From Amoebophrya sp. A120 (lineage: Eukaryota > Protista > Dinoflagellata), in contig CAJINV010000001.1 in NCBI GenBank assembly GCA_905178155.1, forward strand, positions 16,306,142-16,370,141: a DNA stretch of 64,000 nucleotides. The letters run 5' to 3'. Numbering within the stretch: position 1 is the stretch's first letter; the number at the start of each line of letters is the position of its first letter. Shown piece after piece: positions 8,160 to 61,836 of this stretch. The position numbers and the translations under genes are program-made. The notes under the pieces are model-generated. The model was not told the DNA's origin. It did no database searches and saw only the letters and a program-made list of their open reading frames with translations.

Positions 8160-8832
8160 AGATGCATGGCAGATGTCGCGAAGATCCGCTGACGCAAGAA
8201 GATCCGTGCGAACAAAACAACCTGGTGTTGTCGATCTCATCTGCGACGTAGTAGAAACCGGAACCGAAGAAGATCTCAGTCCGATCGGCGCCCTCGTCGG
8301 CTGGCATGCGCATTCGCTGGTGACCTCGTGAAGTTTGCTACCACCTGTGTGCGACTCCGATTCGATCCATCTGTCGTGATGTCGGCTGCCAACGAACATG
8401 TAATCGCGATCACCTCGATGATCTCGTGGTGGTCGAAGTGGTTCCTTAGGCTGTTCCAAAGGCCCGCTGCGTCCATCGTGCCTGTGTCGTTTTTTCACGA
8501 GAGACGTAATTTTGTGGGGAAAAAAAAGACAGCGACGGAAGAAGTGAGCTTAGAGTAGTCTTGTTGTACCTTGTTGTGCATATATAGAAATAAGACAAAG
8601 AGAGATAGCGCAATAAATACTCTCTCTTCCGTACTAAGCAATTGCACTATTATTCTTTCGGAGCACGCTCACTGTCCCAGTTGCCAGCATTTCAACGACG
8701 TTTTTCTGGACATGCAGACTACGATAGACCTATTGCTCCCGCAGCAAGCTGTGGCATGAACCCACCACCTGAATCAGAACTTTTCAGTCCAAGCCACCAC
8801 CTGAACCAGAGAAAGCCCCTTTATTTCAGCCC

Positions 8833-13707: not shown

Positions 13708-13921
13708 CCATCGAAAAACGAGGTTCTTCAAACATCACCTTCCCAAGGATTGATCACAGTGATCTGAGACTTTTGTAAAATCAATGAGGACAGCGACAGC
13801 CCTGTGTCAGTTTTTCTTAGTCGTCATTATCTCCGAACGATGAGTGTGATGAACCCGGCAAGATAGTGGCAGAAATAGGTTTGAAAATCTTCACAAAGAC
13901 AGCGCTACTAAAACCGAGACC

Positions 13922-18526: not shown

Positions 18527-19104
18527 AATGTTTTAATTTCTCCCCGCAAAGATCATGAAGAAGTAGTTTACTTCTGAAGAACTGTAGACGAAACAGAAAG
18601 AGTCCCGGGACCGGTAGCAATTTTCTCAAGACAGGAATAGCAGTCCACCTTCAAGTTTCCTTCGGCACAAAGTACATTATTCAACATTTTGCTCTCAGTA
18701 AGACACAACAGGAGATAGATAAATATGAAACAAAACCGACCTATCGAAACCAAAAACGAACGCCCACCAGCAGATTCAGGATGAACTACAGTGGCGTCTG
18801 ATGTCACACGTTCGCAGATGCTTCTTTGGTTCCTGACTCGGTTGAAAACGCCAAAGCCAATACAGAACCGGCGCGCGGACAATCATGCCTTTCATGCAAG
18901 AACGGAGCCCACTTTGGTATCGGTACGCGTAAGTTCTCTCCACCCCTTGGCCCGCTTCTGTCGTGTCGTACTAAACAGAACAGATGTCGGCTCAATGTTG
19001 TCCTGTCCCTGCGATGCCTCGAACTCGAAGTGCGGCTGTGTTGATGTTGAAGAACATGAACGTGAACACGCATACAATAGAGCTACGGACTTACTTTAGT
19101 TTCC

Positions 19105-33085: not shown

Positions 33086-34970
33086 ATGGCGGAAGAGGTT
33101 AGCTCGGAGTTTGAATGTGCGTTATGCCTTCGCCTGCTACTTGAGCCCGTCAGCGTCTCATGCGGCCACACGTTTTGCAGGTATTTTCACTTTGTCTAAA
33201 CACGCTTGATCGACTTGCGGCGAGTACCCTTTTCGCACTCTTCATTGCCCCTCTTTACATCAGGCGAACACTTGCTCTTGGGAAATGATGCCAATTCGAG
33301 TTCGCGAAAAGTACCTCGGACAACACGTTTTCCTTACAGAACGTGAACCAAAACTGCTAAAACAGGTCCTGCATCGAGGCTAGTCTGGACCACCGTGCCG
33401 CCTGTCCGCTATGTCGGCAGCCCATCATCGCAGGCCGAAGCGTGAACGTCCTGATTCAAAATTTGATTCAGCAGCGGTACCCCCAGACTCTCCGGGCGCG
33501 CCAAGAGGAGCAGCTGGAGGAGATTCGGGATGATGAGCAGCAGCGCGCGGGGGCGAACACTACCGCTATCTCGCCGGACAGAGATGCGGCGGGGGCCACA
33601 GAGCGGCGGAACGTGCCGATGTTCGCGAGCTCCAGATTATACCAGACCAACGAGCTTCTATTCCCGGGGGCCGAGATGCTCTTCAAGGCAACGGAGATGC
33701 AGGACGAGCATATCCTGGATCATCTACTTGCCACCTCGCGGGAGTTTGTGATGCAGTACGAAGCATCTGCTGGTGCTGGCAGTGGCGACGATGAAGCGAG
33801 AAATGGTGGCGCATCGAACGCAGCCGGAACTGCCAATACAGCAAATTCCTCCACAACTGGCAATTCCGTAGGCTATCTCTTCCAGGTGGAGTCCGCGGAG
33901 CGGGATCCGCAGGACGAAACGCGGATGGTGCAGTGCCGGTGCAAGGAGCGGGTGTGGGTGCGAGGGATGAGATTCACGACGCGGCCGGAAACCGGGACCG
34001 GCATGCGTATCTGCGACATCGTGCCGATGAAAGACGGAGCGATAGACGTAGCCGAGCTCGTGCTGCCGACCGCCTACCAGCCACTGCGCTTAGATCCTAT
34101 GACGGGCAAGCGGTTGGGTAGCACGAGCAGCACGCCTCCACAGCAAGAGGACGCACCACCTGTAGAAGCGCAAGCGGGCACGCAGCCTGCATCACCCGTA
34201 AACGCTGAGGGGCCACCAGACGAAGCCAATGGGGGTATCGAGCTCACTCCTGTCCTAAACCCAGCAACGCGACCTATTGTCGCTCCACCTGACGTGCGTT
34301 CACGGAACCTAGCGTCCATTGCGGATGAGTGTGTCATTTACCTGAACTTTCACCTGGAACGACTGGGGCCGCACGCCCGGCAGCGCTTCATTCGCCACCA
34401 CGGGCCGGTGCCAATGCGAGTTGCGCGGTCGGTCATGCAATTGCGCGACATCGAGCAACTTTCGTGGTATCTTTGCCGAGTGCTGGTCGCGACAGACGAC
34501 CGGAAAACGGAGTGGTATTTTCTACGCTACTTTCATCATGTCTCCTCCTGCTCAGTTTCGCGGGCAGTATCCCTTGTAGACTAGAGGACGGTCTGGAGTT
34601 GCCGTTTTATGGTTCATTCCGCTGCGTGTGCGTACTGCATGAATTCGTTCCACCATGTTCTACATAGGTGCACGTCCAGTGGAATTTTCACTATCCGAAA
34701 AATTAAAATTTGCATCTTCCAAGGTTCAAGTCGACGGATTTGAAGCTCCGTCTGTGCGATTGCTTGCAGGTGTTCCGGGAGTGTGGAAAGCCCGGGGCAT
34801 GCCTCCAGATGCCAGGCTCGGCGGCCTGGATGAAGCTTGGCTCTCACTATTCGTCCCTTCTGCTGCTGGTGATTGTTCTCCTTCTTCTCTATCTCAAAGG
34901 GAGCGGCCACCTGGACGCGCTTGAGCGGTCGCGGGGGCGCGGAAAATACGTAATCGACTTCGATTCGTAG
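33086..34970 (+). CDS. LON peptidase N-terminal domain and RING finger protein (LONRF-like), tail-anchored
   Basis: C3HC4 RING CALC...CGHTFC/RSC...CPLC spans intron 33181-33365. LON-N-like LLFPG and LSWY motifs. Intron 34515-34723. C-terminal hydrophobic LLLLVIVLLLLYL. Confidence 0.85.
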
Positions 34971-40681: not shown

Positions 40682-43486
40682 ATGGCTCCTCCGGCTTCTC
40701 CTACCTCCTCAGTACCACCACTCGCAGTGAAAATGGCGACGGCGGTGATGACGAACGAAACAGAACTTACGGCTTCGCCGTTCAACAGTACGACCAGCAC
40801 GGGCGCTGCACAGCTCGGGGCAGCCGGGCATCCGAAAAATCAAGAGAACTTCACGGCTTCTGCCTTGGATCCAAACGCGACCGCAGCATCTGCCTCAGAC
40901 GACGGCAGCAGCATTGCGGAAGGGCTCGTGGAGTCCGCGACAACGTATTTGGCCACGCTAGGCACAGACGCACTGGCGTCTACGCAGGATTTCTTCACTG
41001 TCTACTTGCCGCTTTTTTTCACAGTTACTCTTCCAAAGTACTTCGCCGACGCGGCTACCAACGGATACAATTCTGTTATCCAGTTTTGCATCCAGCTGTA
41101 CTACGCCTGCTGCGCGGTTTTGCAGCTGCTGCTCACCATCTCAGATTTGGTCTACCAGCTGCTTCTCGGACTGTGGCGCGTCGCGCAAACCATCGCGCAT
41201 GTATGGCTTACTTACATCGGCATACTGCCGATAATAATCGCAGCCACGTGCTTGATCATATTCTTGGTCTTGGCGCGATCTGTTGCAAATCGACGATTTG
41301 CAAGACTGCGGAACCGAATTGAAGATGTGATTCTCTCCGCAAACGTCCACGCCGAGGAGAAAGATGCAAGTCCGAGTTTTATTTCCTCAAGATCTTCTAC
41401 AGGAGGCAACCGGGACCTCGAGCAATTGCGTGGAGCGCTCCCGCTTTTCCCCATAGTGCATCCGGAAGGAAGACTCGTGGGAAGCAGCAGAGAAATCGTC
41501 GCCGTCGGCGATGCCGAGTACCCGAGCATGCGGACGAGACGGCTGCGTGGACAGGACAGCAGGTGCGCAGACAGTAGTGGCACGAAGACGGAGATCCTCT
41601 CGAAGGCACCGAACGTGAATCTCGTCCAGGATGACTCCAGCGGGACGGAATCGGCGAATTCTAGCACATCGGCGACGCCAAAGTCCCAGACGGAGAATTT
41701 TGCGGAAATCGTCGACTCGGCCGGGTATCCGGTGAAAACGGACTCGCGCTCGCTGCTCTTTGCCGGTGCAACAAGCTTGTCCTCTGTGCGAGCAAACGAC
41801 TCTCGCAGTGATGTGCAGGAGGTGGCCGAAATAAATTCGAAACCCTGCCTGCTCTACGTGCACGCGTTTCGCGGCAGCCCGGGCGATGCCGGGTACCGGG
41901 TTTCCGCCCAGATGGCAAAAGCGCTCTCTACAGACCTGGCCACCGTGCGCTTGAGGTGGCACGGGTTTCGCGGGTCGGATAGTTTACTGCACTGGGCGTC
42001 AGCGGCGGACTACGTGCAGGACGTGATGCAGGCGTTGCGCAGGTTGGTGGTCGTTTACGGGCGAAGGAAAATTACGCTCGTCGGTCACGGTTTGGGAGCG
42101 ACCATCTGCTTCATCGTACACAGGATACTGTCCACATCTTCGACCTCCGGGCGCAAACCTGGAAAGAGATCCGCCGACTCGACGACCACACAACAACAAG
42201 ATCCGATCCGTGCAGCGCTGCAGGGGGCAATCTTGCTGTGTCCGCAAGTTGACTACGGGGCGGTAACACAGGAGATGCTGGATCCACACATCCAAGAGCT
42301 TCTTGCCGAGTCACCTGTGTTTGCTTCGGGCCTGGGACGCAGCACGGGAATCGATGATCCCGCAGTTTTCTACGCCGGGGTGGCCGAACTGCGGTCCGCC
42401 AACCGCCGCTACCACGTCAAGGAATTCCTCTACCGCAGCTGGCTAGTGGGCGCGGGTTGGCAGCTGCTCTCCCTATGCAAGCGCTGGGGACTAGTTGCGG
42501 CACCGGGCTTGGGAGGCGTTCCCAGTGCTGCAGACTCGAAGTCCAGAAAAAAGAAAGTTTCGACCCAAGAGCGAGCCGCTTTCGTTCAGCGAGTCTGCGA
42601 CTGGTGTCTGCACGCTTTCCCAGCGAAACCGGATGCGTACGAAATGTCCCAGCTGGGTGGAGCGCCTGCCATGGCAGTCGCGGCTGGGGCGTCATCTTCA
42701 CCGACGAAAAGAAGCAAAAACACGGGCTCAAGCTCTGGTACTGATGCTGGCAGTGACGCAAGCGCGCCGTCGCCGCGCACAAAGAACAAGAAGAAAAGGA
42801 AGCACGTGGAGCACGTGCCATTTGAAACGAAACGGACAGGCTTCGATATCATCGGGGCGTGCCTGGAGAAAGTTCTAATCAAAGGTGCGCTTTTTTGCTG
42901 TACATGAATGCAGTTTCTGTCTTATGGCCCTGGAGCAGGACGCATGCTGTTTCTTGATACTGGTTTCCGTGTCCTCGTGCATTTTTCTTGGTAGCAGCTG
43001 CAAAACTTCGTTAAACTACTTAGCCCTCACATCGATCATACGTCAGGTCTCTTGACTGCTCGAGACGCGCATGCCGTACGCCATGTGCAGTGGACAGAGT
43101 CGCAAAGCTGGACGTCCCGGCACGACAGTGCGGCGTTGCTCGCTCCGCTTTTGCTGGTTCGATTCGCGAGAGAACTCCTTGGTCAAGCTCCTGGAGGTAG
43201 CAGAGGTGGGGTAGAACCGGCGAAGCAAGACGCCTCCGACGACCAAACTACCAGGGAATCATCGCAAGCCGGAGGCAGATTGTTCATTCTCTCATCCTCC
43301 TCGTCTGTACCAGAGGAGGAGGACGCTGCGCTCTGGGCTGGTGCCGGCGCAGCGCACGACTCCGTGAAGCATGCGGAGGAAAAAATTCTGCTCGGCCACG
43401 ACGTGGAAAAAATCGTCGACCTTGTCAAGCGGCATTTCTCGGATTCAAGTGCTCCTGCGGACCGCGCCAGTGCGGACACTTCCTAA
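40682..43486 (+). CDS. membrane-anchored alpha/beta-hydrolase-fold protein, likely catalytically inactive
   Basis: TM segments, LLYVHAF, LRWHGFRGSD, ITLVGHGLG and AILLCP. Intron 42885-43046 (phase 1). His-containing C-terminal exon. Confidence 0.7.
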
Positions 43487-44387
43487 GCACTACCTTGTCC
43501 TTGGCATGGATTTCTTAGAAAAACAAACCACGAGAATTGGCAACGGTTGTGTGGAAATATGTGTGCTTCAAGAAGATCGACGCTATGCATTATTTCCGTC
43601 TTATTTCCTACATTACGCTAGTGATGATCATTTTCGTTTTACCGCCACGGTTCTGCCGCCTCCGCTAGCAGTTCTCGCAAGTACACTCTTTTGTTCTCCT
43701 CCGCCAAGCTACACGCAAACTTTCACTACAAACATGTTGATCGCGAGAAGAGTGTCTGTGGACAAGAACGCCAGCAGCTTCATCAAAGAGGCTTTCGCAC
43801 AACTGACAGTTGAGCTGGAAACGTCAAAATAGACTCAAATCGTGAAAGCATCAGAGAAGTCGGGAGAGAGAATGCGAGGCTTTACCCGTGGCCCAGCGCA
43901 ATTTCTTACCAGCAAACTTTCAGATCGGGAACTTCTCATATGATCCTGTACTCGCTGAAGTAGCTGGCTAAATGTAATAGCGGTTGGTTGCGGTGCAGGA
44001 CTAGATTGATGACATTAACCTCGGTAAGCCCCGAGACAAGCGTGGCTTCTGTATGCTAGCTTGGCCGCGCCGGTGACGGAGTGCTTTACAAAAGTCACGA
44101 GCCGCTGCTGCCCCGACCGAGCCGCTCCTCGCTTCCAAGAAGACGTTTGGATTTTTACAGCTGTTCTTCCAGTCCGTGGACCGGCACGCTGCGTAAGACG
44201 GTCTCCTGTCGCTTCTTCACGTCAACACCGCATAATTGAGGCCACGGCAACATCAGCGGGTTTTGTGCGACATCTGTTGGGTGCGAGTTCTAAGTTCTAA
44301 GTTTGATAAAAGATAAGTCCTCGTGTCCGTCCGTCTTGCTTCTACCGTCTTCTGCACGGCGTTTTGGATCCGTCCCGGCCCTGCACC

Positions 44388-47300
44388 ATGGCACCCCAAC
44401 TCGAGGTTCCGTCGTCCGCCTTTTTTCCGGGACAACAACAGATTACACCGATTAACGATAAATGCGACGGTGAAAACACCGAGGACGAGGACATGGACCA
44501 TACGCCCGCGAAGCAACTGTCGGCCGGTATTGCCCCGCAGGTGGGGATGCGAATGGTAGGCACGATTGTGCGGGAGATCTTTCACAAGGTTAAGGACAAG
44601 GATGGCAACGTGATCCGGGTCGGGGACAGCAAGGGGTACGGATTCATTCGTCCGCATAAGCAACTCAGCCTGGAGAACTTCCTCGGGCACAAAACAGGGG
44701 GTCGCTTCACCAACTTTGTCAGTGTGTCACCGGATTTTATTGCGGAACTGTCGGAGTTGTCGAGGGAGTTCAAATCCAAGAATGACCTGTTTGTGCACAA
44801 GCGGTCCGTCGTTGAGGGCGACTGGGGTGTGGGCTGTGTGGCCGAATTCACTGTTGCACCGGGCCGGGAGGAGGGCAAGCTTGAGGCGCGCATGGTGCAA
44901 ATCCTGGCCGTTGATCCCCGCTGCCCGACTCTGGATGCGCTGGCGAAGAAGGTTCAGTGGCTCGAGGGGCAGTTAAAGTTGTCCAACAAAAAATCCAACG
45001 ACGCGGTGGCGACCGCTGAAGCCGCAAGGGTGACCTCGGCGCAGGCAGCGGCCAAAGTGCATCAGGTCGAAACCTCCACCAGCCAGCGCCTGGGCAAGCT
45101 CGAAGCCGGGGTAGAGGAGTCCGCACAGGTGGCGCGCGACACGAAGAGAGACGTTGAGGCGGTGAAAAAGGAGGTTGTTACCCAGCAGTCGACCCTGGCG
45201 GAGATCCTGTTGCATGTCAAGCAGAACTCCGCTGCATCGGCCCAGCCGGCGAAGCGCAATGAGGATGAGGATGAGGGTATCGCTAGCGCTCCTTCGTGCG
45301 AACAGTCTTCATCTTCGTGTTCATCTTCGTCTTCATCATCACAGCTCTGTCTCAACAACTTAAATTCCCACATCTCATCATCACAGGTCATTCCGGCGAT
45401 GACAAGAGACGTAAGATGGCCGGCGCTGGAGCTGCTGAAGCGACAAACCCATAGCAGCAGAGCGGGTGATCAGGTTGCTGCACCACGGCGGCTTTTTGCT
45501 GGTGCTGCAGCCGGAGATGATGAGTTTGATGAAAATCTTGATGTGAACAATTTTGACAACGAGGATTTTGAACAACAGCAACCAGATGACAAAGAATCAT
45601 CTTGTTTGTCCTGTCGACTGTCGGAACTGTCGGTAGCCGTACAGTCAGATTTTGTTGATAGCCCGCAAAACGAAAACCAAACCACGAACGGCAATCCTTA
45701 CATCTGTGAAACGAGTGATTTGAGCCAGCAGCCAGCCTCTGCAATTGTTGAAAGGGCCTCTGCAGCTGGTCCGTCGCACACCAGGCAGTTGGTGTCTCAC
45801 GCGTTCAACGCTTTGTGTTCACTAGGGCGTCACGACTCTGTTATCGCGGTGTCAGATACCTCTCCAAAAACACCTGATCGACGCTGGCCCGCGACATCTA
45901 CCGTCCCCGCAGTGAACGAGGCACAGTGCGACCCGTTTGTGACACCGCCCCCGCGCACAAGGACTATCTGGGACCCAGGCATCAGAACAGCCGAAAAGGA
46001 TACAACAGCTCGCAACTCTCGCCGGATCAGACGGAGCAGGAGGAAGGGCTTCTTCGCAAACATCATCACGGTCAACTTTCAGGGGAAACACCAGTCCAAG
46101 CAGCGCGAGCAAATACTCCAGCACTTTTCCGAAGTCCATAGCTTGGGCGGGCCCCACATCGACGCGATACTTGGGACGGAGTTCTCGTACGATGCGAATG
46201 CTGCTGATGGACCGCCCGACAGCTTCTCCACTACCCTAGACACGGACGGGAGATGGTTGACCCTGTGGATTTGTGGCGCGGCGATAATAGTATACAACAA
46301 GCAGTGGATCAAGCAGATTCTTCGTGGCAACTTCCGGGTACATTCACAGCCACGGATTATAGCACTGCGCCTCCCGTTCTTAGCCCTTTGCAGCGCGTAC
46401 GCCCCAGCTGATGGAAGTAAGGCCGGCCAGGGAGTGTGTTTGGCGTTTGACATCTTCCTTGGCAACCTCGAGATTGTACTTGGCAAAATCCGTAAGCCGC
46501 TACGTACCGGATCGACCCCACTGCTCGTGAAGCTGAATACCGCAGCGAAACCCCCTGGGCTTCCAGACCCTACGTTCGACGCCTCGGCCAACTCGTCGCT
46601 CCGCTGCCCAGTTTTTGTTGGGGGTGACAATCTTGGCACCGTTGGGTCTCCGGACTCCAGGAATAGACGAGGCTATTGTGGGGGACAGACAGCCGGCCAG
46701 TTTGGGCTTGATGATACGAATGGGCGCGGCGTTGAAGTTTTGCGATTTGGCGATGACTACGGGCTTGCAAATGTCAATGTGCTTTACGACCACCGGGAAT
46801 CGAAGAAATTTGTTCAGTGGCGTCCGAGTTTGCTCTGGCATGCGCAGGATCGGGCAACGCATTACTCCAAGCGGATTCTCAGGTGGCGGGAGCTCGATCA
46901 GTTCTACGTAACGAGCTGCGACGTTCCGAGCATCACTGTTTGCGCCACCGTTACGTCGCCGCTGGGTCTTGACCACCGTCACAAGTTTCTCCGCGCATTC
47001 ATCGAGTTTTCTTATCAGCGGAGGAACATCGACCGTAGGGCGAAACAGGACCGGACGGAGGTTGACGCTTCTGCACCGTTGTGGCGTGCCACCCCTTCAG
47101 CAAAACACCAGTTTTCCGCCGCTGTTGTGCAGGCGTTGTGCCCAGAACCGGACTCGGCCGCAGACGTTAGCTCCCCTGTTGCCGACCCGACCCCGCAGAC
47201 TCCGCTTGATATCCCCATATCCCGCATCCCAGAGGCTCTTGTTGCTGCGCGGGGTATTTTAGCGGGGTCCGCACAGCAGGAGCTGAACCGCTACAACCGG

Positions 47301-50300
47301 AGCCACGACTACAAGAAACGGAGACGCTTCGACCTGCGCATCAAGATCCTACGCAAGGAAGTTCGGCGCCTCGGCGCCGCCCTCGACCCAGACGATGACG
47401 CAGCGGGCGCAGTTTATCAGGAAAAGTGTGAGCTTTTAGCCAGTGTCATTGCAGAGCGTGTGGAATTCCGCAAGACCCAGTCCTCCGACTTCAACACGGA
47501 CTACCACACCAGGGCGCAGCGCACGCTGAAGCGGAGGCTTGCAAAGGGTGTTGATTTCGATCCTGAGACTGCGGCGAAGCACTTCCAAGCCGTCAGTGTC
47601 TCGCCCGGGGTTCCTAACGTTGAGCTTGTTCGCAGCGCTGTGCAGCCCCTTGACGACACCAGCAGGGAAACACTTTTAAAGGAGTTCTCCATCGAGGAGT
47701 GCATGTCCGCCGCCAAGCGTCGCCGCAACAGCCTACAAGTAGACGTCGTTGGCGATTCCATTGCGCTGTACAAAGCTTTGAACGCCGGGGCCTGGGCAGT
47801 GATTGTCCGGATCCTGAACCACCACCGGCTGACCAACTTTGTGGGGCTCCTTGGCGAAAACCCGCAGGACCAGCAAGTTCTTGCCGCCACTGTCCGGCTG
47901 CTCTACAAGGGAAAAGGCGCCGAGACTAGTCTTGATAATTTTCGTGGCATCGTGAATACCTCGATTATTGTTAAAGTGCTGACGGCTGTTTTAACAGATC
48001 GGCTTGATGCCTGCCTTCGTTCCTGTGGTTTTCTTTCTGGGCGCCAGCATGGGTTTCGCAGGCACTACCAAGTGGACGAAGCGGTTTTTTTGGCGCGTCG
48101 GGCGTGTGAGGATGCCCTGCGTGTTTTCGGGAAGGGGAGCAGTGTCGGCAATTTGTCGCTGCTGCTCCTTCTTGACATCAGGAAAGCCTACCCCAGTTTC
48201 CCGTGGAAGATCTGGAAGGGAATCATCCGCGGGCTCGGTGTTGAGGACTCTTTTTTCGACTCCCTCTTCAGCATCGTCCACCGCCGAACTAGCTACCAGG
48301 TTCTCTGTGGTGACAAACCAAGCGACCCGTTTTTTTTAGACAGCGGCTTCGGAGAGGGACAGATAAGCTCTCCCAGTTCGTACTCCCTCGCCTACGAGTG
48401 TGTTCTACGTGTTGTGCGACAAGTGTTGACCGAGAGGCTTTCCAGATCTTCGTCGCTGCTTCTTTGGTCCCCGCGTGCGCCGTTTGCTTTCGTTCCAGGA
48501 GTGAAGCCGGGTACGGGGTTGCGATCGGTATTTGACCTCCTACACCCGGGGTCGGCCTCCCTTGTCGTCGACAAGATGACCGAGTGGGAATTCGCCGACG
48601 ATACGCTGATCCCGGCCCTCCTTCTACATTGTCTGATAAATTTTTTCGGTTGGGAAGCAACTGCGGATGAGGCTGCTGTAGCGGCGAACCGGGGGAAGTT
48701 TGATTTTGTCCTTGCGTCAAACCCAGAAGTCTCTGCTTTCGTCCGGTATCTCGGGGCGTTTCTGGATCGCCGCGAGGATTCCTCGCGCAGAATTGGAAAG
48801 ATGCTTGCGGCACTTGGCGAAGTTGACTGTGTCCCTGCCGCGGGGGACACGGTCACTGATGTGCGGATAAACATCATGTCGCGGGTGCGCAGCAGGGGGC
48901 TCTTTGCGATTGGGACGAGGGAGATTACGCAACAGGAAATAAAATCGCATCAGGTCATCGAGAATCAGGCTCTTCTGCGCCTTGCCGGCCAACCGCGTTG
49001 GTCGTTGCGCCGCTTCCACCTGCCGCTGGCCCGCCTTCGTCGGTGGTACCACATGGACCCAGCGTGCGCGATGATCCGCTACTCACAGTGTTCGCACGTC
49101 GGCCACATAGTGCGGTCCGATCCTGGTCGACTCTCTCGGAAAGCGTTTTTTGGAATGTTGACCTTCGGCCTGCCATGTCTTGAAGACCACTACTTGCACA
49201 GGCGGACCGGGCAGATTTCTCTCTGGGACAACGTGCGTGATTCCTTGAAGCTTGTATGCGGTGAGCGGTCTGACACGCAATACCTGACCCTGATGCAGTC
49301 CCGGCCGCATTTCAACGCCTTGCTTTATGAGCTTCGCATTTTTTTGACGATTGAAGACTACCTCACTGATGACGGCGTCACTGATCAGCAGCTTGCCGAC
49401 GCTCGGAAGTGGTGGGCTGAGCACTTTGCGAAGCGCCAGAACTCGCTGCCGATTGATGTCAATTGCCGCTCTGGATTTTCGTGGTTTAGCCAAGACGGCC
49501 GATCATTCACCGATGAAGTGCTGGCCAAGATTCATGTCGAGACTACTGTTCCCGGCTCTACCAACTTCTCGCGGTGCAGAAGATGCAGTGTTGATGCCTG
49601 CGACAAGTGGGACACACGTTTTACCCCGAAGTTCCTGAACGACTACGCCTGCACGCCCTACATTCCTTCCCCCCGACCTGAGACACGGTGGAAGACTGCC
49701 GAGTTCCGCGATATCAGGCAAGTTGTTGGGCATGACAGTGGTGTCTCCATTCATTGCGAGAACCCGGCGCCCGCGGTTGGGGATGCCAGTGGTGCTGACC
49801 TGTCCTTCTTCCGCCGCGATGACATCGTGAACACCGTCTACGAGAAAGTGCGCGCGGTGCACGCTGAAAAGCCTCCTGACCCCCCGAAGAAGTTGCCGCC
49901 GCTCACGAAGTTAGTGCAGTCCATCGAAGTTGAGCAGTTCCGTGACGTATTGTTCCCCCCCACAGACCAGTCTGGCGACGCATCTTCCTCCAACCTCCGC
50001 TTTGCCTCAAGCACCCCTCCGGACGACCATCTGCAGCTGACGAGGTACCTTGAGGAGCAGCATGCTGCGATTTGCCGTGAGATTGAGGAGTATCCGTTTT
50101 TCATCACTCATCGCTACGACCATGGGAGTAAAGCGATCGCATCGGTTCGCTGCGTTTGCCAGGAGTGCCGCGACTTTGTCCTGCGCAAGCGAGCGAAGGG
50201 GCCACGGGGTAGAGCTGCGTCCGAGTCCTCTTCCGTTTCGATTTCGGAGTCTGCAGATGGCGATGGTGTTGACGCAGGTAACGAGTCTGATGATGAATTT

Positions 50301-50999
50301 GTGTTGGAGATAGGGCGTGGCGCTGGGGATGCTCTTGCTCTGTCCCCCGACCATGAGGTTCCGGAAGACGATGACGAAGACCCGACGACCCTCAAGATGC
50401 TTGTCCCCGTTGATCAGCAGCGGTTGTTCGCCAATTTGAAGACTGCGTTCCGACACATGCGATACAAGAAGCAGAAGCAGGCAGAGGCGGACTTCAGTGC
50501 ATTAATTCCGGCCCCCCCCAAGAAACCCAAGGAAACTACGACCAGTGCGAAACCTGCGCGGGCCCTCGACGTTGACGCCCCTCCGCAGCGGACCAAGAAG
50601 CTGATGCCGTCGCAAGCCCTTGACTCGGAGCTGCATCCTGAGCAGCGCGTCGTCGATGTTTCTGCCGGCAGCGCCCACACTGTCGACGAGGACCCGCCCA
50701 TGCAGCTCCCCAAGGGCATCACGTGGTGCACGTCCATGCCTGGAGCTGCGTCGCGTGCTTTTGGCGGGGTGCTTCTCGTTAGGGTGACGAACGCGAAGCT
50801 GCCCGATGGGTCTACGCACCACGTATCCCGACACATCGATCCAGCCGCGTACGGGAACAGTGCGTCGCTCGCGATTGAAGCGGCAATTGCACTACGAACC
50901 CAGATCACACTTGACCCTGCCCCCTTCATTGCGAAAACGAAGCGGATGCGAAAGCCGAAAAAGAAGAAAAGTGGTGGTGGTGTGGACGTTCGTAGGTAG
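44388..50999 (+). CDS. retrotransposon polyprotein: cold-shock domain - coiled coil - AP endonuclease - reverse transcriptase - split Zn finger - AP2-like domain
   Basis: CSD KGYGFI/DLFVH (~44547-44905). APE NIITVNFQG, SAYAP, VGGDN, LDQF, LDH (~46050-47000). RT LLYKGKG..NFRGI, QHGFR, LLDIRKAY, FADD (48591), YLG (48747). CxCxxC...F.....RH. C-terminal LPKGITW...YG...A...AIALR. Confidence 0.92.
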   Translation: MAPQLEVPSSAFFPGQQQITPINDKCDGENTEDEDMDHTPAKQLSAGIAPQVGMRMVGTIVREIFHKVKDKDGNVIRVGDSKGYGFIRPHKQLSLENFLGHKTGGRFTNFVSVSPDFIAELSELSREFKSKNDLFVHKRSVVEGDWGVGCVAEFTVAPGREEGKLEARMVQILAVDPRCPTLDALAKKVQWLEGQLKLSNKKSNDAVATAEAARVTSAQAAAKVHQVETSTSQRLGKLEAGVEESAQVARDTKRDVEAVKKEVVTQQSTLAEILLHVKQNSAASAQPAKRNEDEDEGIASAPSCEQSSSSCSSSSSSSQLCLNNLNSHISSSQVIPAMTRDVRWPALELLKRQTHSSRAGDQVAAPRRLFAGAAAGDDEFDENLDVNNFDNEDFEQQQPDDKESSCLSCRLSELSVAVQSDFVDSPQNENQTTNGNPYICETSDLSQQPASAIVERASAAGPSHTRQLVSHAFNALCSLGRHDSVIAVSDTSPKTPDRRWPATSTVPAVNEAQCDPFVTPPPRTRTIWDPGIRTAEKDTTARNSRRIRRSRRKGFFANIITVNFQGKHQSKQREQILQHFSEVHSLGGPHIDAILGTEFSYDANAADGPPDSFSTTLDTDGRWLTLWICGAAIIVYNKQWIKQILRGNFRVHSQPRIIALRLPFLALCSAYAPADGSKAGQGVCLAFDIFLGNLEIVLGKIRKPLRTGSTPLLVKLNTAAKPPGLPDPTFDASANSSLRCPVFVGGDNLGTVGSPDSRNRRGYCGGQTAGQFGLDDTNGRGVEVLRFGDDYGLANVNVLYDHRESKKFVQWRPSLLWHAQDRATHYSKRILRWRELDQFYVTSCDVPSITVCATVTSPLGLDHRHKFLRAFIEFSYQRRNIDRRAKQDRTEVDASAPLWRATPSAKHQFSAAVVQALCPEPDSAADVSSPVADPTPQTPLDIPISRIPEALVAARGILAGSAQQELNRYNRSHDYKKRRRFDLRIKILRKEVRRLGAALDPDDDAAGAVYQEKCELLASVIAERVEFRKTQSSDFNTDYHTRAQRTLKRRLAKGVDFDPETAAKHFQAVSVSPGVPNVELVRSAVQPLDDTSRETLLKEFSIEECMSAAKRRRNSLQVDVVGDSIALYKALNAGAWAVIVRILNHHRLTNFVGLLGENPQDQQVLAATVRLLYKGKGAETSLDNFRGIVNTSIIVKVLTAVLTDRLDACLRSCGFLSGRQHGFRRHYQVDEAVFLARRACEDALRVFGKGSSVGNLSLLLLLDIRKAYPSFPWKIWKGIIRGLGVEDSFFDSLFSIVHRRTSYQVLCGDKPSDPFFLDSGFGEGQISSPSSYSLAYECVLRVVRQVLTERLSRSSSLLLWSPRAPFAFVPGVKPGTGLRSVFDLLHPGSASLVVDKMTEWEFADDTLIPALLLHCLINFFGWEATADEAAVAANRGKFDFVLASNPEVSAFVRYLGAFLDRREDSSRRIGKMLAALGEVDCVPAAGDTVTDVRINIMSRVRSRGLFAIGTREITQQEIKSHQVIENQALLRLAGQPRWSLRRFHLPLARLRRWYHMDPACAMIRYSQCSHVGHIVRSDPGRLSRKAFFGMLTFGLPCLEDHYLHRRTGQISLWDNVRDSLKLVCGERSDTQYLTLMQSRPHFNALLYELRIFLTIEDYLTDDGVTDQQLADARKWWAEHFAKRQNSLPIDVNCRSGFSWFSQDGRSFTDEVLAKIHVETTVPGSTNFSRCRRCSVDACDKWDTRFTPKFLNDYACTPYIPSPRPETRWKTAEFRDIRQVVGHDSGVSIHCENPAPAVGDASGADLSFFRRDDIVNTVYEKVRAVHAEKPPDPPKKLPPLTKLVQSIEVEQFRDVLFPPTDQSGDASSSNLRFASSTPPDDHLQLTRYLEEQHAAICREIEEYPFFITHRYDHGSKAIASVRCVCQECRDFVLRKRAKGPRGRAASESSSVSISESADGDGVDAGNESDDEFVLEIGRGAGDALALSPDHEVPEDDDEDPTTLKMLVPVDQQRLFANLKTAFRHMRYKKQKQAEADFSALIPAPPKKPKETTTSAKPARALDVDAPPQRTKKLMPSQALDSELHPEQRVVDVSAGSAHTVDEDPPMQLPKGITWCTSMPGAASRAFGGVLLVRVTNAKLPDGSTHHVSRHIDPAAYGNSASLAIEAAIALRTQITLDPAPFIAKTKRMRKPKKKKSGGGVDVRR

Positions 51000-52100
51000 T
51001 GTGTACGTTAGTAGCTAGCGTTGTAGCCTGGGGGAGTGCGTTTTTTAGTTAGAAGTCCGCTGATGTTTCTGCCTGTGTGCAGTTGCACTTGAAAAAACTA
51101 TTTGCAGCTACAAAAATAATAAAAAACACAAAAAAAAAACCGTAACTTTCTAGTAGTGCAGTCTCTCTGCCTCTCTACAGCAAGGTAAAAGTCAAACTAT
51201 CTGTGTTTGGCTTTCTTTTTTCTTTTACCTTTCTTTTTCTCAGTTGAGAGCTTTGTGAGTCCGCAACACGATGGTGTGCTGATGAGTGACGAGTGACGTC
51301 GTGTTTTGTCTCTCTTGGTAACACCGTTGTTGATGATCTTATGATGCTATTTATTACACGAATGCTTGGTTTAAAGTTTTACCTGATTTCCATTCTAAAC
51401 TTGGTCGCCGGGAAGGGACCGAGGTACGTGTTAAAGGCTTCGCGCTTTGTAGTTAAAGTCTTACAAGCTCTGAGGATCCATCGTGCTCGCCTTGTCCCGA
51501 TGCTATGGTGGAAAAACAGACTCACTAACGAGAGCGAAAATCCAAAAAAGCTGTTGTTTTCCATGATCTCACACGTATCGCCTTGTCCCCGTCTAAAACT
51601 GCAGTTTTGATAGTTCAGGTAGTAGAAAGTGCGTGAGTTTTTTTTCTGCGAAAAGACCAATCCTACGTAGACGGGAACGTGACGACTTCGACAAATCACG
51701 ACTTGTAGCCGGTTTGAGGGTTTTCACATGACGAAGACCATTATTCTGACCTATTGCCGTGTAGTTTTTTTTTTGATTGAAATCCAAAATCTGAAAGCTT
51801 AGTTTTGTTTTAGCTCCCCCAGGCCCGCTCCTCGGAGCATAGTTTTTTCAAACCTTTCCAATGTAGCTCCTCGGAGCATAGTCTTCTCGCCCATTCCAGC
51901 TCAGCTCTTCGGAGCCTATTCTTTTAGTCCTCTCTAGTCTGCAAAAGGGTTTAGTTAATTCTGTTTCAGCTCCAAACTTCTGACAAACGCAAATCTGTTT
52001 TACGGCCGACGTGGTGGTTAGGATTGCCTGACTGCTGCGTTGAGCCCAGCTTGTGTGACGGCGTCACGTGGGCTGACACCTCTGATCTGATCTGATCATC
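51000..52100 (+). ncRNA. structured 3' UTR / RNA domain of the retrotransposon
   Basis: Several long-range inverted complements (11-13 bp, perfect) and local hairpins whose G-U pairs only form on the + strand. Confidence 0.6.
51827..51920 (+). repeat. three tandem GCTC(C/T)TCGGAGC tetraloop-hairpin repeats, period 38-39 nt
   Basis: GCTCCTCGGAGCATAGT at 51827 and 51866; GCTCTTCGGAGCCTATT at 51904. Confidence 0.85.
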
Positions 52101-55147: not shown

Positions 55148-58100
55148 ATGAGTTGCGATACCCCTGCGGGCCTTGGTGTCCCCGTCACCCCCGACCGCCG
55201 CTCCGGGAGTTTCACTTCGCAAGACTCGAGCATCAAACAACCGAAAACCCGGAACGCGATGGGAGGGCAGCACATCCCGTTCCTCTTCGTTCCCCCGGGA
55301 ACGACTGCGCGGGCGAGAAATGGGCAACACGTTCCGCAGAGCATGGGTACTAAAAATTATGCATAAAATGCTTATTCGATAATTTTAATTTCGATATGAG
55401 AAAGCCAAAGCCCGGTCGCAAGACGCTCGTTCTATGTACTTAATATGACATTTGATTTCATCGCGCCGCGACGTCAATAGATTTGGGAGGTCACCATGAT
55501 GTTCATTTTCTATTGCGTTCCATCTTCCTCGGAATTCATATTCCAATCCTTTACTCCAATCGTACGAACAGAGCGGTCGGATGCACTGATGAGTTTGACG
55601 CTGAACCTGCTAGAAACGTACCAGAATTGCAACCCGGAGTTCAAGTACAACCAGAACAAGTCGGCGCCGAAGCGGGTGTTAACCAAGCTGGCCGAGGGTG
55701 TGTACAACAATGGATACGACAACTCGAAGCACGATTACATCTGCCGGGTCCGCGACCAGCTGACCAGCCCGGACGGGCGGATCTACAGCATCGTCGAGCG
55801 GCTGGGTCACGGAACGTTCGGGCAGGTGCTCAAGGTGCAAATCCTCCAGCAGGACCGCGAGAGGTACAACGTAAATCCCGCGAAGGCGATGGCAGAAGGG
55901 GAACAGCAACACCAGGTTCCATTGAACAACAGCGCCGGTACCCCTCCGTTTTCTACTGCCGAATCTGGTGGGATGGATCAACAACTGCACAGCAATAACG
56001 CCCACAACAGCCAGCAGTTGTTGAAGGAGGGCGGGCACGTGGCGCTGAAGATCATTAAGAACAAGCCGGCCTATTTCCATCAGGCCTTGGTGGAGGTTCG
56101 CATCTTGAAGATGCTGAACGAGAAGTACGACGAGGAGAGCCGCATCGTGCGCATGCTGGACTTCTTCGTGTACCGGAAACACCTGTGCATCGCGTTCGAG
56201 ATTCTCAGCGTCAACCTGTACGACGTGTTGAAGCAGAACGGGTTCCGCGGCCTGTCCACGCTGTTGATCCGGAACCTGGTGGAGCAGATCGTGCGCGCGC
56301 TGCAGTGCCTGCGGAAGGCGCGCATCATCCACTGCGACCTGAAGCCGGAGAACGTGTTGCTGTCCACCACGCGGACCACCAATATCAAGCTGATCGACTT
56401 CGGCTCCGCCTGCTTCGAGGGCCACATCGTCTACACCTACATCCAGTCGCGCTTCTACCGATCGCCCGAGGTGCTGCTCGGCCTGCCCTACTCCTCTGCC
56501 ATCGACCTGTGGTCGCTGGGGTGCATCTGCGCCGAGCTTTTCATTGGGCTGCCGGTACTAAGCTGTTCTGCTTCGATGTCGTGTGATTTGCAGTTATTGA
56601 TTCAGTTGGCAGGAGTTCCTGCCGACGGCGGTGTCGACGCTTTCACCACATGACCAACTCCGGTTTTGATGTCGGTGCAACGTTTCGGCACAGCTACGCC
56701 AAAAAACGCTGCCATCTTTTATCTACGCCATATCCATAAATCAAAACAGTACAGTCGATTCATTGGTGAAATACAAACTGTTCAAATGTAAGGATCCCTT
56801 GGCATGGTGACCAAAATCAAAATCAGATCTTTCCCGGTTGCAGCGAGTATGACCAAGTGAAGCGCATCACGGAGGTATGCGGCATTCCGCCTGCCCGTAT
56901 GATGGAAGGAGGAAATGCGTCGAAGTATTTCGTTCCCGTGCCCGTGAATCCGGAGGTCGACAACAACCAGACCGACAACTGCTCCAGCGAGTCGGCGAGC
57001 GGCGAAGAGGAGGAGGAGGATGACGAGGATGAGGAATCCACGAGCACGTTAGCAAGCCCCACCATCCTCCAAGCGCCGAATAACCAAGCGCAGCAAACAA
57101 ACGCTCAAGTAGTAGGTCAAGGGGAGCAGCCACCTGCCACAGCGACGGCTGGTGGAACTACAGCTACCGCTGCGGCAAGCAACGGCAGCGCAGCGAATTG
57201 CGCGTCGGACCAGCAGCAGCAGACTACAGCGAGCATCACGACGGAGTTGCTGCAGCGGAGCAGCGGCGCGAGCATGAACACGAAGCAAGGTCGGCAGCAG
57301 TTGATGAACGGCATGAACTTGGTCCGGAACGAGAGCCGCAACACCATGGCGCCACCACCCGGGGCAAACTCGTCGACCACGGGTAGTACCACGACCTCGA
57401 ACAATAACAGCAACCTCCCGTTTCCTGGTGCACAGTCCGGTTTGAACCCCAACAGTGATCTTCAACATCGGGACCACCCCGGAAGCAATAGCGGTTCGTG
57501 TGCCAGTACGCCGTGCAGCAGCAAGCTGCCGCCGCCGCCGGTGTACGCCCCTCCGCCGCGGGCGACGAATTCCCTGTCGATCAAGACCGGGAACACGACC
57601 CCCTCCGGTTCGGCCAGCAGTACCAACGCCTCCGCGAAGGCCACGCCCACCAATTCCTCCTGCTCGTCCGACGTGAACACCGGAAACGAGTCGTGTTCCA
57701 CGACGGAAAACAACAGCCAAACGTTGATCAAGGGCGGCTTTCCGGGGGAAAATGTGGTAAAAGCGGCCCCGAACTTTACCTCGTCGAAGAACGCCGCGTC
57801 GAAAAACACGCCGCCGCTGAACTACCTTCAGGCTCTGGTCGGTGGCGGCGGCAACCAACCGGTCAAGGCGGCGCACCGCGGCAAGGCCAGCCTGTTTCAG
57901 CAGAGTATGAAGGCCAGCTCAAAGTCCACGTCCATTGCGGGTTCGGCCAGCATCGGTGGAGGCAACGTGACTAATGTCAGCCCGAAAACCGCCCTGGTAA
58001 GTGGTGCTGCAACTACTGCAACCACTCCTGCAGCTCAGCAACCAAGTGTTGACAAGAGCAAGAAGAACGAGGCCACGACTGCAACTGCGGTTTGTTCGCC

Positions 58101-61100
58101 GACGTCCAGCGTTACGACCAAGACGAACAAAACTGATGCAGAGAAACAGCTAGTGTCGTCGAGTAGACCTGATGCTGGTGCTGGTGCGACCGGCACTGCC
58201 ACATCGAAAAGTTCCTCGAACGATTCCTGTTCGCGGGAGGAGGACGCGCGAACTGAGTACACGTTGGATTTCGAAAGCGATTCGCTGCTGCCCTCCCGGG
58301 TCCCAACGGGAGATGTTGTGGTTCCAGACTCGGAGAGGATCGTCGAGACCATTGTCGGGACCGGTGTCAACTTGCACGTGTCTGACACCGTGTCAAATTC
58401 CACCGAGCTGCCCTCGAAGAAAAATTCCATTATCGGGAGTAACCAACTCTTCTCGCTCTCGGCGACGGAGGTGGATCCCACGGCCCAACGAGGTCCTGCC
58501 GCCGCCGGGTCGAAGGGAAGCTCCTTGCACAATCTGGGCGACGACAGCGTCGCGGCCAATTCCGACTGCGCAGCGGTCGCCATTCGCTCGGCGGTGAGCG
58601 GCGTGCTAGAGGCGGTGCTCGAAAACCGTCCCTTGCGGTCCTCAGGAAGCAAAAGCAAAAGCTCCAAGAACGCTTCCGGGAAGCCGACGGGGGCGGACGG
58701 AATGTCGAATAAACCTACGAAAGGGGTATGTAGACTAAAAAGTTCGGATTTTATGAAGCTTGATCATGTGCAAAAGGACAAAAATCAGTCTGGCACCGAA
58801 ACGTGCAGCCGTTAAGAATGTATAGATGATTCGACGCACCGTCCTACGTACTCAAATTTATCGCAGGTGCTGACGCAGTCCTGCGAGCAGTTGAGCCTCC
58901 ATTTGCTGTTAGGGAACGGCAACAACGAGCGCGTGAAGAAGGCGAAGAAGCGCGGCAAGCGCAATTTGTCCTCGCCGCTCCGCACGCGGTCGGCGCCCCC
59001 GCGGATGAAGACCACCGGCAAGCGCAAGCGGCAGACCCGGAAGCGCGCGACGACGCTGGGCTCGAATGTGAGCGCGACGACGCGGGCGGCCGCGGGCCCG
59101 ACGCTGTCTCGGACCACGCGCACGAGCTCGAACACCAACGCGATCGTCGTCAACAAAACGGCGACCACTTCGACGACCGCGACGGCGGCCAACACGATTG
59201 ACCACGCAGGCATGCCCGCGACCAAGCTGCACAACAAGCAGGCCAGCGCCATGGTTACGTGGCGGCTGAAAACGAAGGAGGAGTACGAGCGCAGCACGCA
59301 GAAAAAGGAAGGGCCGTCCAAAAAGTACTTCGATTTCTCCTCCCTGGAAGAGATGGTCCAATCGGTGCGGGCAAGCAAAACAACGCCGGAGGAAAAGAAA
59401 CGTCGAGAGCAGCTGCTCGACTTCCTGAAGCAACTCTTCCAAATCGATCCGGCCAAACGCATGACCCCGGACGAAGCCCTGCGGCACCCGTTTTTGACCG
59501 GCCAGACCACACCTGTTGCGGCTACGGCTACTGAGGTATTAATGGAAAGAACTTACTCATCTTCATTGAAATTGAATCAAGAGCACTGGTAGAGAAATCA
59601 GTCACGGGCAACTGCAAATGTGACTTATTTACTTACTCGATAGATGTTGATTTGTGCAAAAGAGAACAAACTTTCCTTTTCCTTTCTTCCAGGGCGCCCC
59701 CTGTTTCCCGACGCCCGCGCCGGTGCACAAGCAGGATTTCAAATCGGATGCCACTGTGGATGCGGCGCAGCCGTTCCTGTTGCCGCCCATGCCCGATCTG
59801 ACCGAAGAAACTTTGCGCTGCCTGGACTTACCGCCCGACCAGCCCGAATCCTACCGTCCCCCGGTGGATGCCTTACCGGACAGTTACTTCTACGGCTTTC
59901 TCCACGGGCGGTACCGCGAGCAGCGCACCACGATGCAGCAGGTGCAGGAAGGCGCGCCCGGCACCGGTGCCCCCAGCAGCAGTACCTCGACGCCCGCGTC
60001 CGGGGCCGGGGGCTCCTCTGCAACGCTGCAGCCGGTCAACCAGCACTACAGCAAAAGTGCAGGAGCCCCTGGGCAAGTTTCTGCTGCTGCGATGGCTTCT
60101 GCGCAATTGTACTCCAACGTCGCGAGCGGTGGCGCCAAGGCGGCCCCTCCGCCGGTGCCGCCCCCACTTCCTGCGACCCAGCAGCACGCGCAAGCCACCC
60201 CAACCTCTGGACAGCACTCATTGTCGATGAGTCACGGCGGAGCACCAGTGCAGGTTGGTTCTAATGTTCCAACTTTTGTCGCGACCAATGCAGCCTCTGC
60301 TTCTGCGCAGGGTGTGCCGCACGTCCAGGTGGCTGGCACGATGCACCCAGCAGGGCCCCCGCAATTCCCGCACCAGCACGCGACACCGACTTCGTCCTTC
60401 ACGTCGCGCGGTGCGTTTCCGTCCCGTGGATTCGCCACCCCGCTCAGCGATGCCACGACCTCCGCGCCGTGGGCGGAAAAGAGTGACTCCTCGATGGCTG
60501 ACCCGAAGGGCGTTGTTCAGCAGGGGGGTCTTCACAACAAGCAGCCGGTGCCGCAGGCCACAACGCCGCAGGACTTGCAGCACCACTCTTCTGGCGGGTC
60601 CTCGTCCACGACAGCCTCCTTGACCAACACGCCGACCACCATGCATCAGTACCACCCACCGCAGCGCGCGACCGCCGGCGGACAGTGGCCGGTGCCGCGT
60701 GCCGGGGGTCCACCGAGCCGGGATAATTCCCGAGTGGCCTACGCCAATCCACCGCAGCAGCCACCGCCGCATGTCGCCGTGGTGGGCAGCCCGGCCGGGC
60801 AGCCGCCGCACCAGCATCCAGGGAATCGCGGACGTAGTTTTCTAGTTTGTTCTCCCATGAGGCTCGTAATTTCTGTGACAACTCCTAGTGTTTTGATGCA
60901 CGGTGCTGGTACTTCTCTCATGAATGTAGCGCTTTGTAATCAACAACATCAAAATTCGCTTTTCTCAAAAAAATCCATGCAGAAAACAACGCTGGTCTCC
61001 GGCTGGTGCAATACAATGCTAAGCCTCCTGCGTATCACCAGAAGCGCCGTGCAAAGTACGCCCGCCCGCATTCTTGGTCCTACGGAGCTCCAGGGATGCA

Positions 61101-61836
61101 GCAGCCGCACACTCCGGGAGATCGGTACGAAGTTGCTACTTTTTTATTCGATTCACAAATGTGATGTGTTGCTATCAAAAGATGCAGAGTCCGTAATCAA
61201 ATACGTGACTCACGATTTCGTCGCCTATCATGGCAAACAAAAATCGATAGGTCGAGCACGGGCAACCCGGGTAATGCGAGTGGTCCGGGTTACATGGTTT
61301 CGTCGGGGGGTTCGAGCAACACGTCGGGACCGCAGCAGCTGCAGCCGCCGCCCCAGCAGCAATATTCGTATCACCCCGGTGTTGTAGGTGGATCTGCGAC
61401 CAGCCAGCAGCAAACGCACGTGCACCAACATGCGACGCACCTCCAGCCACCGCCGGCGCAGCAGCCTCCCCATCACGTGCAATCCCGCGGGTCTTCGCCG
61501 TGGCACTTGCCCAGCCCCATTTCCCCGGCGTGTTCAGTGGTGTCGGAATCTTGGGCAACCAGTACCAACAACAGGCAAATCTTTTCGCCGGCGGACAGTT
61601 GGACCAGCGACGATCACGACTACTCCCGGGCAGCGCACTACTATTCGAGCTCCCCACCATCGTCTCTGGACTCTTCTCGCAACCAGCATCACTCGTCGTC
61701 CTACAACGCGTACAATGCTCATGGGGGACCGCACGGGCAGCAGCAAATGTCAGCGGGCGGCGGCGGCTGGAACAACGTTACGAAACGTGGCCAACAAGAC
61801 TTCTCGAAGCAGATGATGCACAATAGGACTACATGA
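55148..61836 (+). CDS. YAK1: Yak1/YakA-type DYRK-family dual-specificity protein kinase (7 exons)
   Basis: Yak1 signature TY..CNPEFKY...PKRVLTK...NNGYDN..HDYI; GHGTFGQV, KIIKNKPAYFHQA, HCDLKPEN, DFGSA, YTYIQSRFYRSPE. Introns 55347-55571, 56555-56826, 58726-58866, 59536-59692, 60834-60982 and 61125-61250. Start is at 55148 or 55259. Confidence 0.9.

Follow-up and report, generated by a model that had tools for sequence, protein, structure and literature searches.

Results

Architecture of the element

We analysed a stretch of 64,000 nucleotides (nt) from the dinoflagellate Amoebophrya sp. A120 (GenBank assembly GCA_905178155.1, contig CAJINV010000001.1, positions 16,306,142 to 16,370,141 of the forward strand; hereafter the window, numbered from its first letter), which carries a retrotransposon without long terminal repeats (non-LTR retrotransposon), or long interspersed nuclear element (LINE), whose single open reading frame (ORF) begins with a segment resembling a cold-shock domain (CSD). 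From the ATG at 44388 the ORF encodes 2,203 amino acids (aa), and its frame is stop-free on the forward strand from 44310 to 50999 (Table 1). The predicted protein starts with an acidic N-terminal tail of 53 aa, followed by the cold-shock-like segment (aa 56–176), a helical segment (aa 180–294) and a linker rich in Ser, Asp and Glu. Behind the linker come an Arg-rich stretch, an apurinic/apyrimidinic endonuclease (APE) and a reverse transcriptase (RT) that contains FADD; the long C-terminal part closes with a basic tip. The names given to the endonuclease and RT motifs are those that we take to apply. The part 44310–45995, with the cold-shock-like segment, the helical segment and the linker, is called the 5′ module below, and the APE-RT part is called ORF2; the in-frame fusion of the two claimed in a preliminary description of this DNA was confirmed.

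With APE and then RT in one ORF, the element is by predicted domain order an APE-type non-LTR retrotransposon. The stop codon is followed by 140 nt that close with an A-rich tail, and 3′ ends occur at other sites, as is characteristic of non-LTR retrotransposons; no target-site duplication was found, and the separate repeat that adjoins the tail may have removed it. Both enzyme domains are very divergent in predicted sequence; Pfam RVT_1 matched the RT with E 0.0011 and 19.1 bits (cut-off 29.6), and the endonuclease region gave no Pfam match of its own. The C-terminal segment resembles, presumably and by eye, an AP2/integrase DNA-binding domain; this is unconfirmed, and Pfam, NCBIfam and PHROG gave no match. 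The pattern Cx2Cx4Hx4C, which we take to describe a CCHC zinc knuckle as in type I ORF1p, is absent from the ORF. Searches of the element for Rfam ribozymes and other RNA families and for tRNAs found none, and no stable RNA fold was found in the 78-nt leader (z +1.31).

Table 1 Features of the element. P0002 is the related protein found in locus L001.
Feature	Position	Strand	Basis
5′ end and 78-nt leader of the repeated unit	44310..44387	+	Second copy shares sequence from 44310
Single ORF of APE-type non-LTR retrotransposon	44388..50999	+	No stop 44310–50999
Degenerate cold-shock-like domain (aa 56–176), split by insert	44553..44915	+	Motifs, profile scores, alignments
RNP1 motif KGYGFI (common to cold-shock and RRM domains), aa 82	44631..44648	+	Motif, profile
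Coding insert of ~37–38 aa between RNP1 and RNP2	44655..44765	+	Spacing; base use; partly helical in low-confidence models
RNP2-like motif DLFVH, after RNP1 (cold-shock order)	44784..44798	+	Motif, profile
Helical, probably coiled-coil segment (aa 180–294)	44925..45269	+	Weak Pfam matches
Ser/Asp/Glu-rich linker	45270..45995	+	Composition; last part common to second copy
Arg-rich stretch and AP endonuclease domain	45996..47039	+	Alignment to P0002; motif positions
Reverse transcriptase domain, FADD at 48591–48602	47601..48899	+	RVT_1 match below cut-off; 35% identity to P0002
C-terminal segment and Lys/Arg-rich tip (AP2-like look unconfirmed)	50700..50996	+	11 Lys + Arg in last 28 aa
3′ untranslated region and A-rich tail (tail 51112–51139)	51000..51139	+	Sequence; contig runs on with other letters behind 51138

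The cold-shock-like domain and the helical segment

All motifs that the preliminary description had named lie in frame, with MVGTIV at 44553–44570, VAEFTV at 44838–44855 and GKLEARMV at 44874–44897 in addition to the two RNP motifs of Table 1. Judged from the alignments, RNP1 falls on strand 2 and the RNP2-like motif follows it, as in the CSD family PF00313. To score the segment, a cold-shock profile was built from 67 bacterial cold-shock proteins (CSPs) and an RRM profile from 17 sequences. The cold-shock profile gave 13.0 bits over aa 69–180, a score equalled by none of 1000 shuffles and none of 606 decoy windows, and 4.8 bits on the C-terminal half alone (3/1000 shuffles, 0/658 decoys). Since two separate halves match this profile in order and above shuffles and decoys, the likeness is more than chance. 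Gapped alignments of the domain to six CSPs were equalled by 0–10 of 1000 shuffles, and that to CspA by none of 227 decoys; strands 4–5 align to CSPs pairwise but not in the hidden Markov model alignment. NCBIfam CspE matched with E 0.012. In the Atlas, a CSD cluster ranked second overall and was the best named match (0.90, 181 of 256 features), and the ten best family matches all belonged to the CSD family or clan, at a recognition of 2007, below the strong level of 2300. Taken by origin, the segment is quite probably a degenerate CSD.

RNP1 and RNP2 are spaced by 45 residues, compared with 7 in E. coli CspA, so that the short loop of PF00313 is not present. An insertion of about 45 aa had been described here; the insertion is real, and its net size is about 38 aa, since CspA itself has seven residues at this place. 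GC contents of 0.51/0.38/0.68 at the three codon positions of the insert are coding-like. When the insert was cut out, at points chosen by ourselves, the cold-shock profile rose to 21.6 bits, compared with 8.8 bits for the RRM profile. An in-frame intron was considered for the insert and rejected: a GC..AG pair that would restore the spacing exists, yet 339 of 603 control stretches have such a pair too, and the acceptor GAG and the coding-like base use further argue against it. Within the insert, 44709–44726 encodes a further RNP2-like strand (TNFVSV), and it is to this strand that MAFFT aligns the RNP2 of CSPs. The insert may derive from an internal duplication or from the fusion of two tandem domains.

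The helical segment contains one proline and is matched by seven Pfam families, which we take to be of helical or coiled-coil type; the best match is Tropomyosin (E 0.0013), and all lie below their cut-offs. The segment likely forms a coiled coil.

A second copy of the 5′ module

DNA contigs from two runs of one sample (X1 and X2), which perhaps is the source of the window itself and so lends no independent support, contain in both runs a second copy of 44310–45995 with an open frame and a different upstream flank. The 65 letters before 44310 are unlike those of the window, the unique 32-kb flank contig of the window ends at 44339, and the repeated unit starts 78 nt before the ATG. The second copy with its other upstream flank places the domain within a 5′ unit that is repeated; the domain is therefore not simply a resident host gene struck by a LINE, a case that the preliminary description had named as a refutation. 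Short repeats of the type TAAGT stand at 44280–44325, before the 5′ boundary, and bases nearly identical to those that open the unit recur in the flank of the second copy; the true 5′ end of the unit is perhaps a short repeat or a favoured target.

Near the start, the second copy differs from the window at 15 of 287 letters and has 27 inserted letters; in the linker, 53 of 416 and 24 of 226 letters differ, a divergence of 11–13%. Insertions of 12 and 3 letters within the ORF are both in frame. Among the differences listed, 48 yielded 44 readable changed codons, of which 23 are synonymous, 21 nonsynonymous and none a stop, compared with a random expectation of ~24% synonymous changes; the four listed changes at aa 174–185 are all synonymous. 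The high synonymous share, the lack of stops and the in-frame insertions together indicate that both copies were kept open as protein, with purifying selection between them.

The enzyme part behaves differently. Positions 45770–50431 form one unbranched contig of 4,662 bases, and in simulations a copy shared a 31-letter run in 2000 of 2000 cases at 88% identity, in 1996 of 2000 at 86%, in 97% at 84% and in 59% at 80%. The unbranched contig and the simulations thus point to different histories of module and ORF2 in this genome; the second copy has either no ORF2 or an ORF2 clearly more distant than its linker.

Relatives of the element

The sole relative found was P0002, a protein of 1,544 aa in locus L001, with 31% identity to the element over 1,090 columns spanning APE, RT and the region beyond. 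It was the one hit among 7,987 scored candidates for the RT and came from one locus among 106 stretches in a metagenome scan; among 2,847 candidates for the APE no relative was found. The nearest Atlas clusters of P0002 carry RVT_1 and Exo_endo_phos. P0002 shares with the element the Arg-rich stretch before the APE and a similar-looking C-terminal segment; unlike in the element, all that lies upstream is a stretch rich in Gln, His and Gly that contains an in-frame stop. P0002 may be 5′-truncated.

At 8567–8767 of L001, a low-complexity stretch rich in Gln, His, Gly and Tyr lies in the P0002 frame and is cut off by one TGA; it may represent the last part of an ORF1 region that was lost. The end of P0002 (L001 13379–13591) and the C-terminal segment of the element (50700–50996) both start with a similar LPKGI motif and both have, by eye, the AP2/integrase look; the pairwise likeness of these two ends was equalled by 136 of 2000 shuffles.

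As the second copy departs before the endonuclease and P0002 has no module, the module looks, from these comparisons, exchangeable and not family-wide. Homologues of the domain itself were found neither among 313 candidates of 236–2000 aa nor in plasmids, viral contigs, prokaryote genomes or PHROGs.

Discussion

Proposed function of the 5′ module and its rivals

We propose, at somewhat less than even confidence, that the 5′ module is a cold-shock-like RNA-binding and self-association part that takes, in an intact single-ORF LINE, the place of a separate ORF1. The two RNP motifs would close into an oligonucleotide/oligosaccharide-binding (OB) barrel with the insert looped out, and would form a single-strand binding face. 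Dinoflagellate CSPs bind single-stranded DNA, double-stranded DNA and RNA in vitro without sequence preference (PMC4863620), and by analogy binding by the module would likewise show no sequence preference. With several molecules gathered by the helical segment, the protein would, in cis, keep hold of the mRNA that encodes it and open up the structure of this mRNA ahead of target-primed reverse transcription. The module would be exchangeable, because module and ORF2 appear to have different histories in the genome.

Several results weigh against this proposal, some of them concerning the domain. With the insert in place, PF00313 gave 16.4–16.8 bits, below its cut-off of 27, and its match covers only 19 residues around RNP1 (aa 73–91, profile positions 3–21). 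The Tyr/Phe of RNP1 and the Phe/His of RNP2 are retained, and the strand-1 Trp and Phe and the Phe after RNP2, which contact RNA in CSPs, are replaced, so that the aromatic surface is incomplete. A single-sequence model of the domain (pLDDT 39.9) and a model made with five close CSPs (pLDDT 42.9), whose alignment placed RNP2 on the insert, are too poor to show an OB-fold; at such quality, the lack of a Foldseek match at E 0.001 and the lack of Z ≥ 8 or of an OB-fold among the 50 VIA-align matches listed are uninformative. Among 1.84 billion protein representatives the domain had four matches at E 0.001, all to unrelated repeat proteins, and no true homologue; the donor required by the earlier idea of a captured host CSD was thus not recovered. 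The heptad-rich coiled coil described earlier finds weak support in the helical-type Pfam matches, but the best heptad contrast was equalled by 107 of 500 shuffles and is not significant. There are two other views of the domain. It could be a degenerate RRM, the usual LINE ORF1 domain, whose cold-shock look comes from the shared RNP1; we consider this improbable. RRMs are indeed a common ORF1 domain (PMC4120745, PMC5203782), both low-confidence models put a helix after RNP1, and a PDB sequence search with aa 39–115 returned no cold-shock protein, with RRMs of TIAR, TIA-1 and DAZL in 5 of 10 rows (E 0.046–1.0, TIAR being best and DAZL matching over aa 52–98). On the same residues the RRM profile scored 9.3 bits and the cold-shock profile 9.9. 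However, the alignment with the RRM profile is confined to 16 residues around RNP1, and this profile fails on the C-terminal half, where 546 of 1000 shuffles equalled it; removal of the insert raises the cold-shock score and does not raise the RRM score; Pfam RRM had no match in six sub-ranges of the domain and the Atlas matches are CSDs; and the RNP2-like motif comes after RNP1. Quite improbable, too, is the view that the motifs are remnants or chance resemblances in a fast-evolving N-terminal extension, with chaperone work left to the basic C-terminus. Family scores that all stay below their cut-offs, the missing homologues, the lost aromatic positions and the basic C-terminal tip would agree with it, as would L1Tc, whose chaperone is C-terminal (PMC5814959). 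It leaves unexplained the ordered match of two halves to the cold-shock profile and the exclusively synonymous changes listed at aa 174–185.

Other difficulties concern the element. The main one for a chaperone acting in cis is amount: fusion gives one domain per RT, unlike the separate, trimeric L1 ORF1p. No stop, frameshift or 2A motif that would separate the N-terminal module from ORF2 was found in the ORF, and neither a cold-shock nor a helix match was found in the 18.8-kb contig of L001. The second copy ceases to match at 45995, directly before the Arg-rich stretch and endonuclease, where P0002 also starts, and this fits a recent chimera equally well. In such a chimera template switching or recombination would have put the 5′ part of another gene or element in front of a LINE ORF2, with the joint at ~45995, and the domain, though its frame is open, would be a passenger that does the element no service; this explanation is rather unlikely. 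It would account for P0002 being without the module and for the unbranched APE-RT contig, since a copy at 87–89% identity would share a 31-letter run and the second copy would therefore lack an ORF2 of the same age; the purifying selection between the copies could stem from the donor. Yet the shared unit has, like the end of an element, an abrupt start at 44310, before which the flanks differ; the copy in the window is already 11–13% diverged in the linker and still open over 2,203 codons, and protein searches found no host donor. That a resident host cold-shock gene received an in-frame insertion of a 5′-truncated LINE at this locus is very improbable. The break at 45995 coincides with the start of ORF2, and the continuation of the second copy resembles the DNA behind the tail over a short distance (equalled by 247 of 5000 shuffles); this match is marginal and no better than that to the window's own continuation (423 of 5000). 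Nor does such an insertion agree with the missing target-site duplication or with the other upstream flank of the second copy, which is therefore not an empty allele, and no contig joins across the element.

Of the earlier claim that a CSD and coiled coil stand in for L1 ORF1p, what endures is a most likely degenerate CSD, fused to APE-RT and lying inside a repeated unit; what speaks against it is a domain order the reverse of that in L1 ORF1p, an ORF with nothing to release the module and a sole relative without it. If the cis-chaperone proposal is extended, the module would be a new type among the ORF1 modules of LINEs, in which a coiled coil is added to an OB-fold of cold-shock type that has a helical insert; it would chaperone the element's RNA and pass from one element to another as a whole. 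Should the second copy lack ORF2, it would then supply free module in trans and restore an ORF1-like excess, which the fusion does not give. This wider proposal we regard as speculative and, on balance, rather unlikely.

Comparison with known systems

LINE ORF1 types are built from RRM, CCHC, coiled-coil, PHD and esterase domains; these have undergone shuffling and exchange, and in some L2 and CR1 elements the 5′ end of a single ORF encodes an ORF1-type domain (PMC4120745). Single-ORF APE-RT elements with a 5′ PHD (PMC4120745) resemble the present element in having an ORF1-type accessory domain at the 5′ end, which here is cold-shock-like and joined to a helix. An algal L1 uses an unrelated helix-turn-helix domain (PMC5203782). 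The L1-type (type II) ORF1p, with coiled coil, RRM and C-terminal domain (CTD; PMC4120745), is similar in lying 5′ of APE-RT and in setting a domain with RNP motifs beside a helical segment. It is a separate homotrimer (PMC5940361), whereas here the ORF is fused, the RNA-binding-like domain precedes the helix and reads best as cold-shock, and no CTD was seen. Transposase_22, the family of L1-type ORF1p, had no match in the Pfam search of the window's proteins, and the module differs from that family in being neither a separate ORF nor of its domain order. Judged by its predicted domains, the module would function as an accessory module of the ORF1 type, yet it falls outside the L1 ORF1p type.

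Two further systems are instructive. In birds, 46 endogenous retroviruses (ERVs) have a host-type CSD that was captured several times (PMC12287698). They share with the element a CSD within a retroelement, but are LTR retroviruses with Pfam-detectable CSDs at varying positions, in contrast to a degenerate domain with an insert in a non-LTR element. L1Tc/ingi of trypanosomes (PMC5814959) is, like the present element, a protist LINE with one ORF that includes APE and RT, and there also a chaperone; its leader has 77 nt and that of the element 78 nt. It differs in a C-terminal chaperone with C2H2 fingers and in having RNase H, a 2A motif and a ribozyme; neither a 2A motif nor an Rfam ribozyme was found in the element.

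Among the titles and abstract beginnings searched, which do not cover Repbase, we found no report of a CSD in a non-LTR element. The words "cold" and "CSD" do not occur in the main texts of PMC4120745 and PMC5203782, nor "CSD" in two supplementary files of the latter, of which one further file may list ORF1 domains. A CSD is not among the ORF1 domain classes in the texts searched and would be a new kind of LINE front module. If the module works as a chaperone, LINEs would have found, in a one-protein design, a second RNP fold, unrelated to the first, for handling their RNA; if the reading is true, the capture of CSDs would, counting the bird ERVs, be a recurring route across retrotransposon classes. 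The second copy would also be a case of a 5′ module parting from its ORF2 within one genome.

The 3′ end, RNA data and surroundings

From 50402 onward the contigs branch with few differences, one of them continuing with other letters behind 51138, as for recent 5′-truncated copies. One DNA contig links 50426 back to 50402, with 11 letters between, at the place where the multi-copy 3′ part starts; the link is perhaps the 5′ junction of a truncated copy. Directly behind the LINE tail, at 51140–52060, lies a separate, highly repeated sequence with many variant contigs and loose ends, in which 51827–51926 holds three copies of a unit at a spacing of 38–39 bases. It had no Rfam or tRNA match and is possibly a non-autonomous element.

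The module is uncovered in presumed-RNA contigs from one sample (X3, X4 and X5), of which X3 has at least five short, low-depth pieces at 49233–51159. Two raw RNA runs (X8 and X9) had no reads anywhere on the window and so are uninformative on expression.

The neighbours of the element are long, intron-poor eukaryotic genes. Six long ORFs of 407–760 aa are without a Pfam match at E 0.1 (8773–10695, 13853–16132, 19081–21360, 33361–34581, 56770–58815 and 59651–61387). In the alpha/beta-hydrolase gene upstream of the element, a GT..AG intron of 162 bases (42885–43046) is joined in a presumed-RNA contig.

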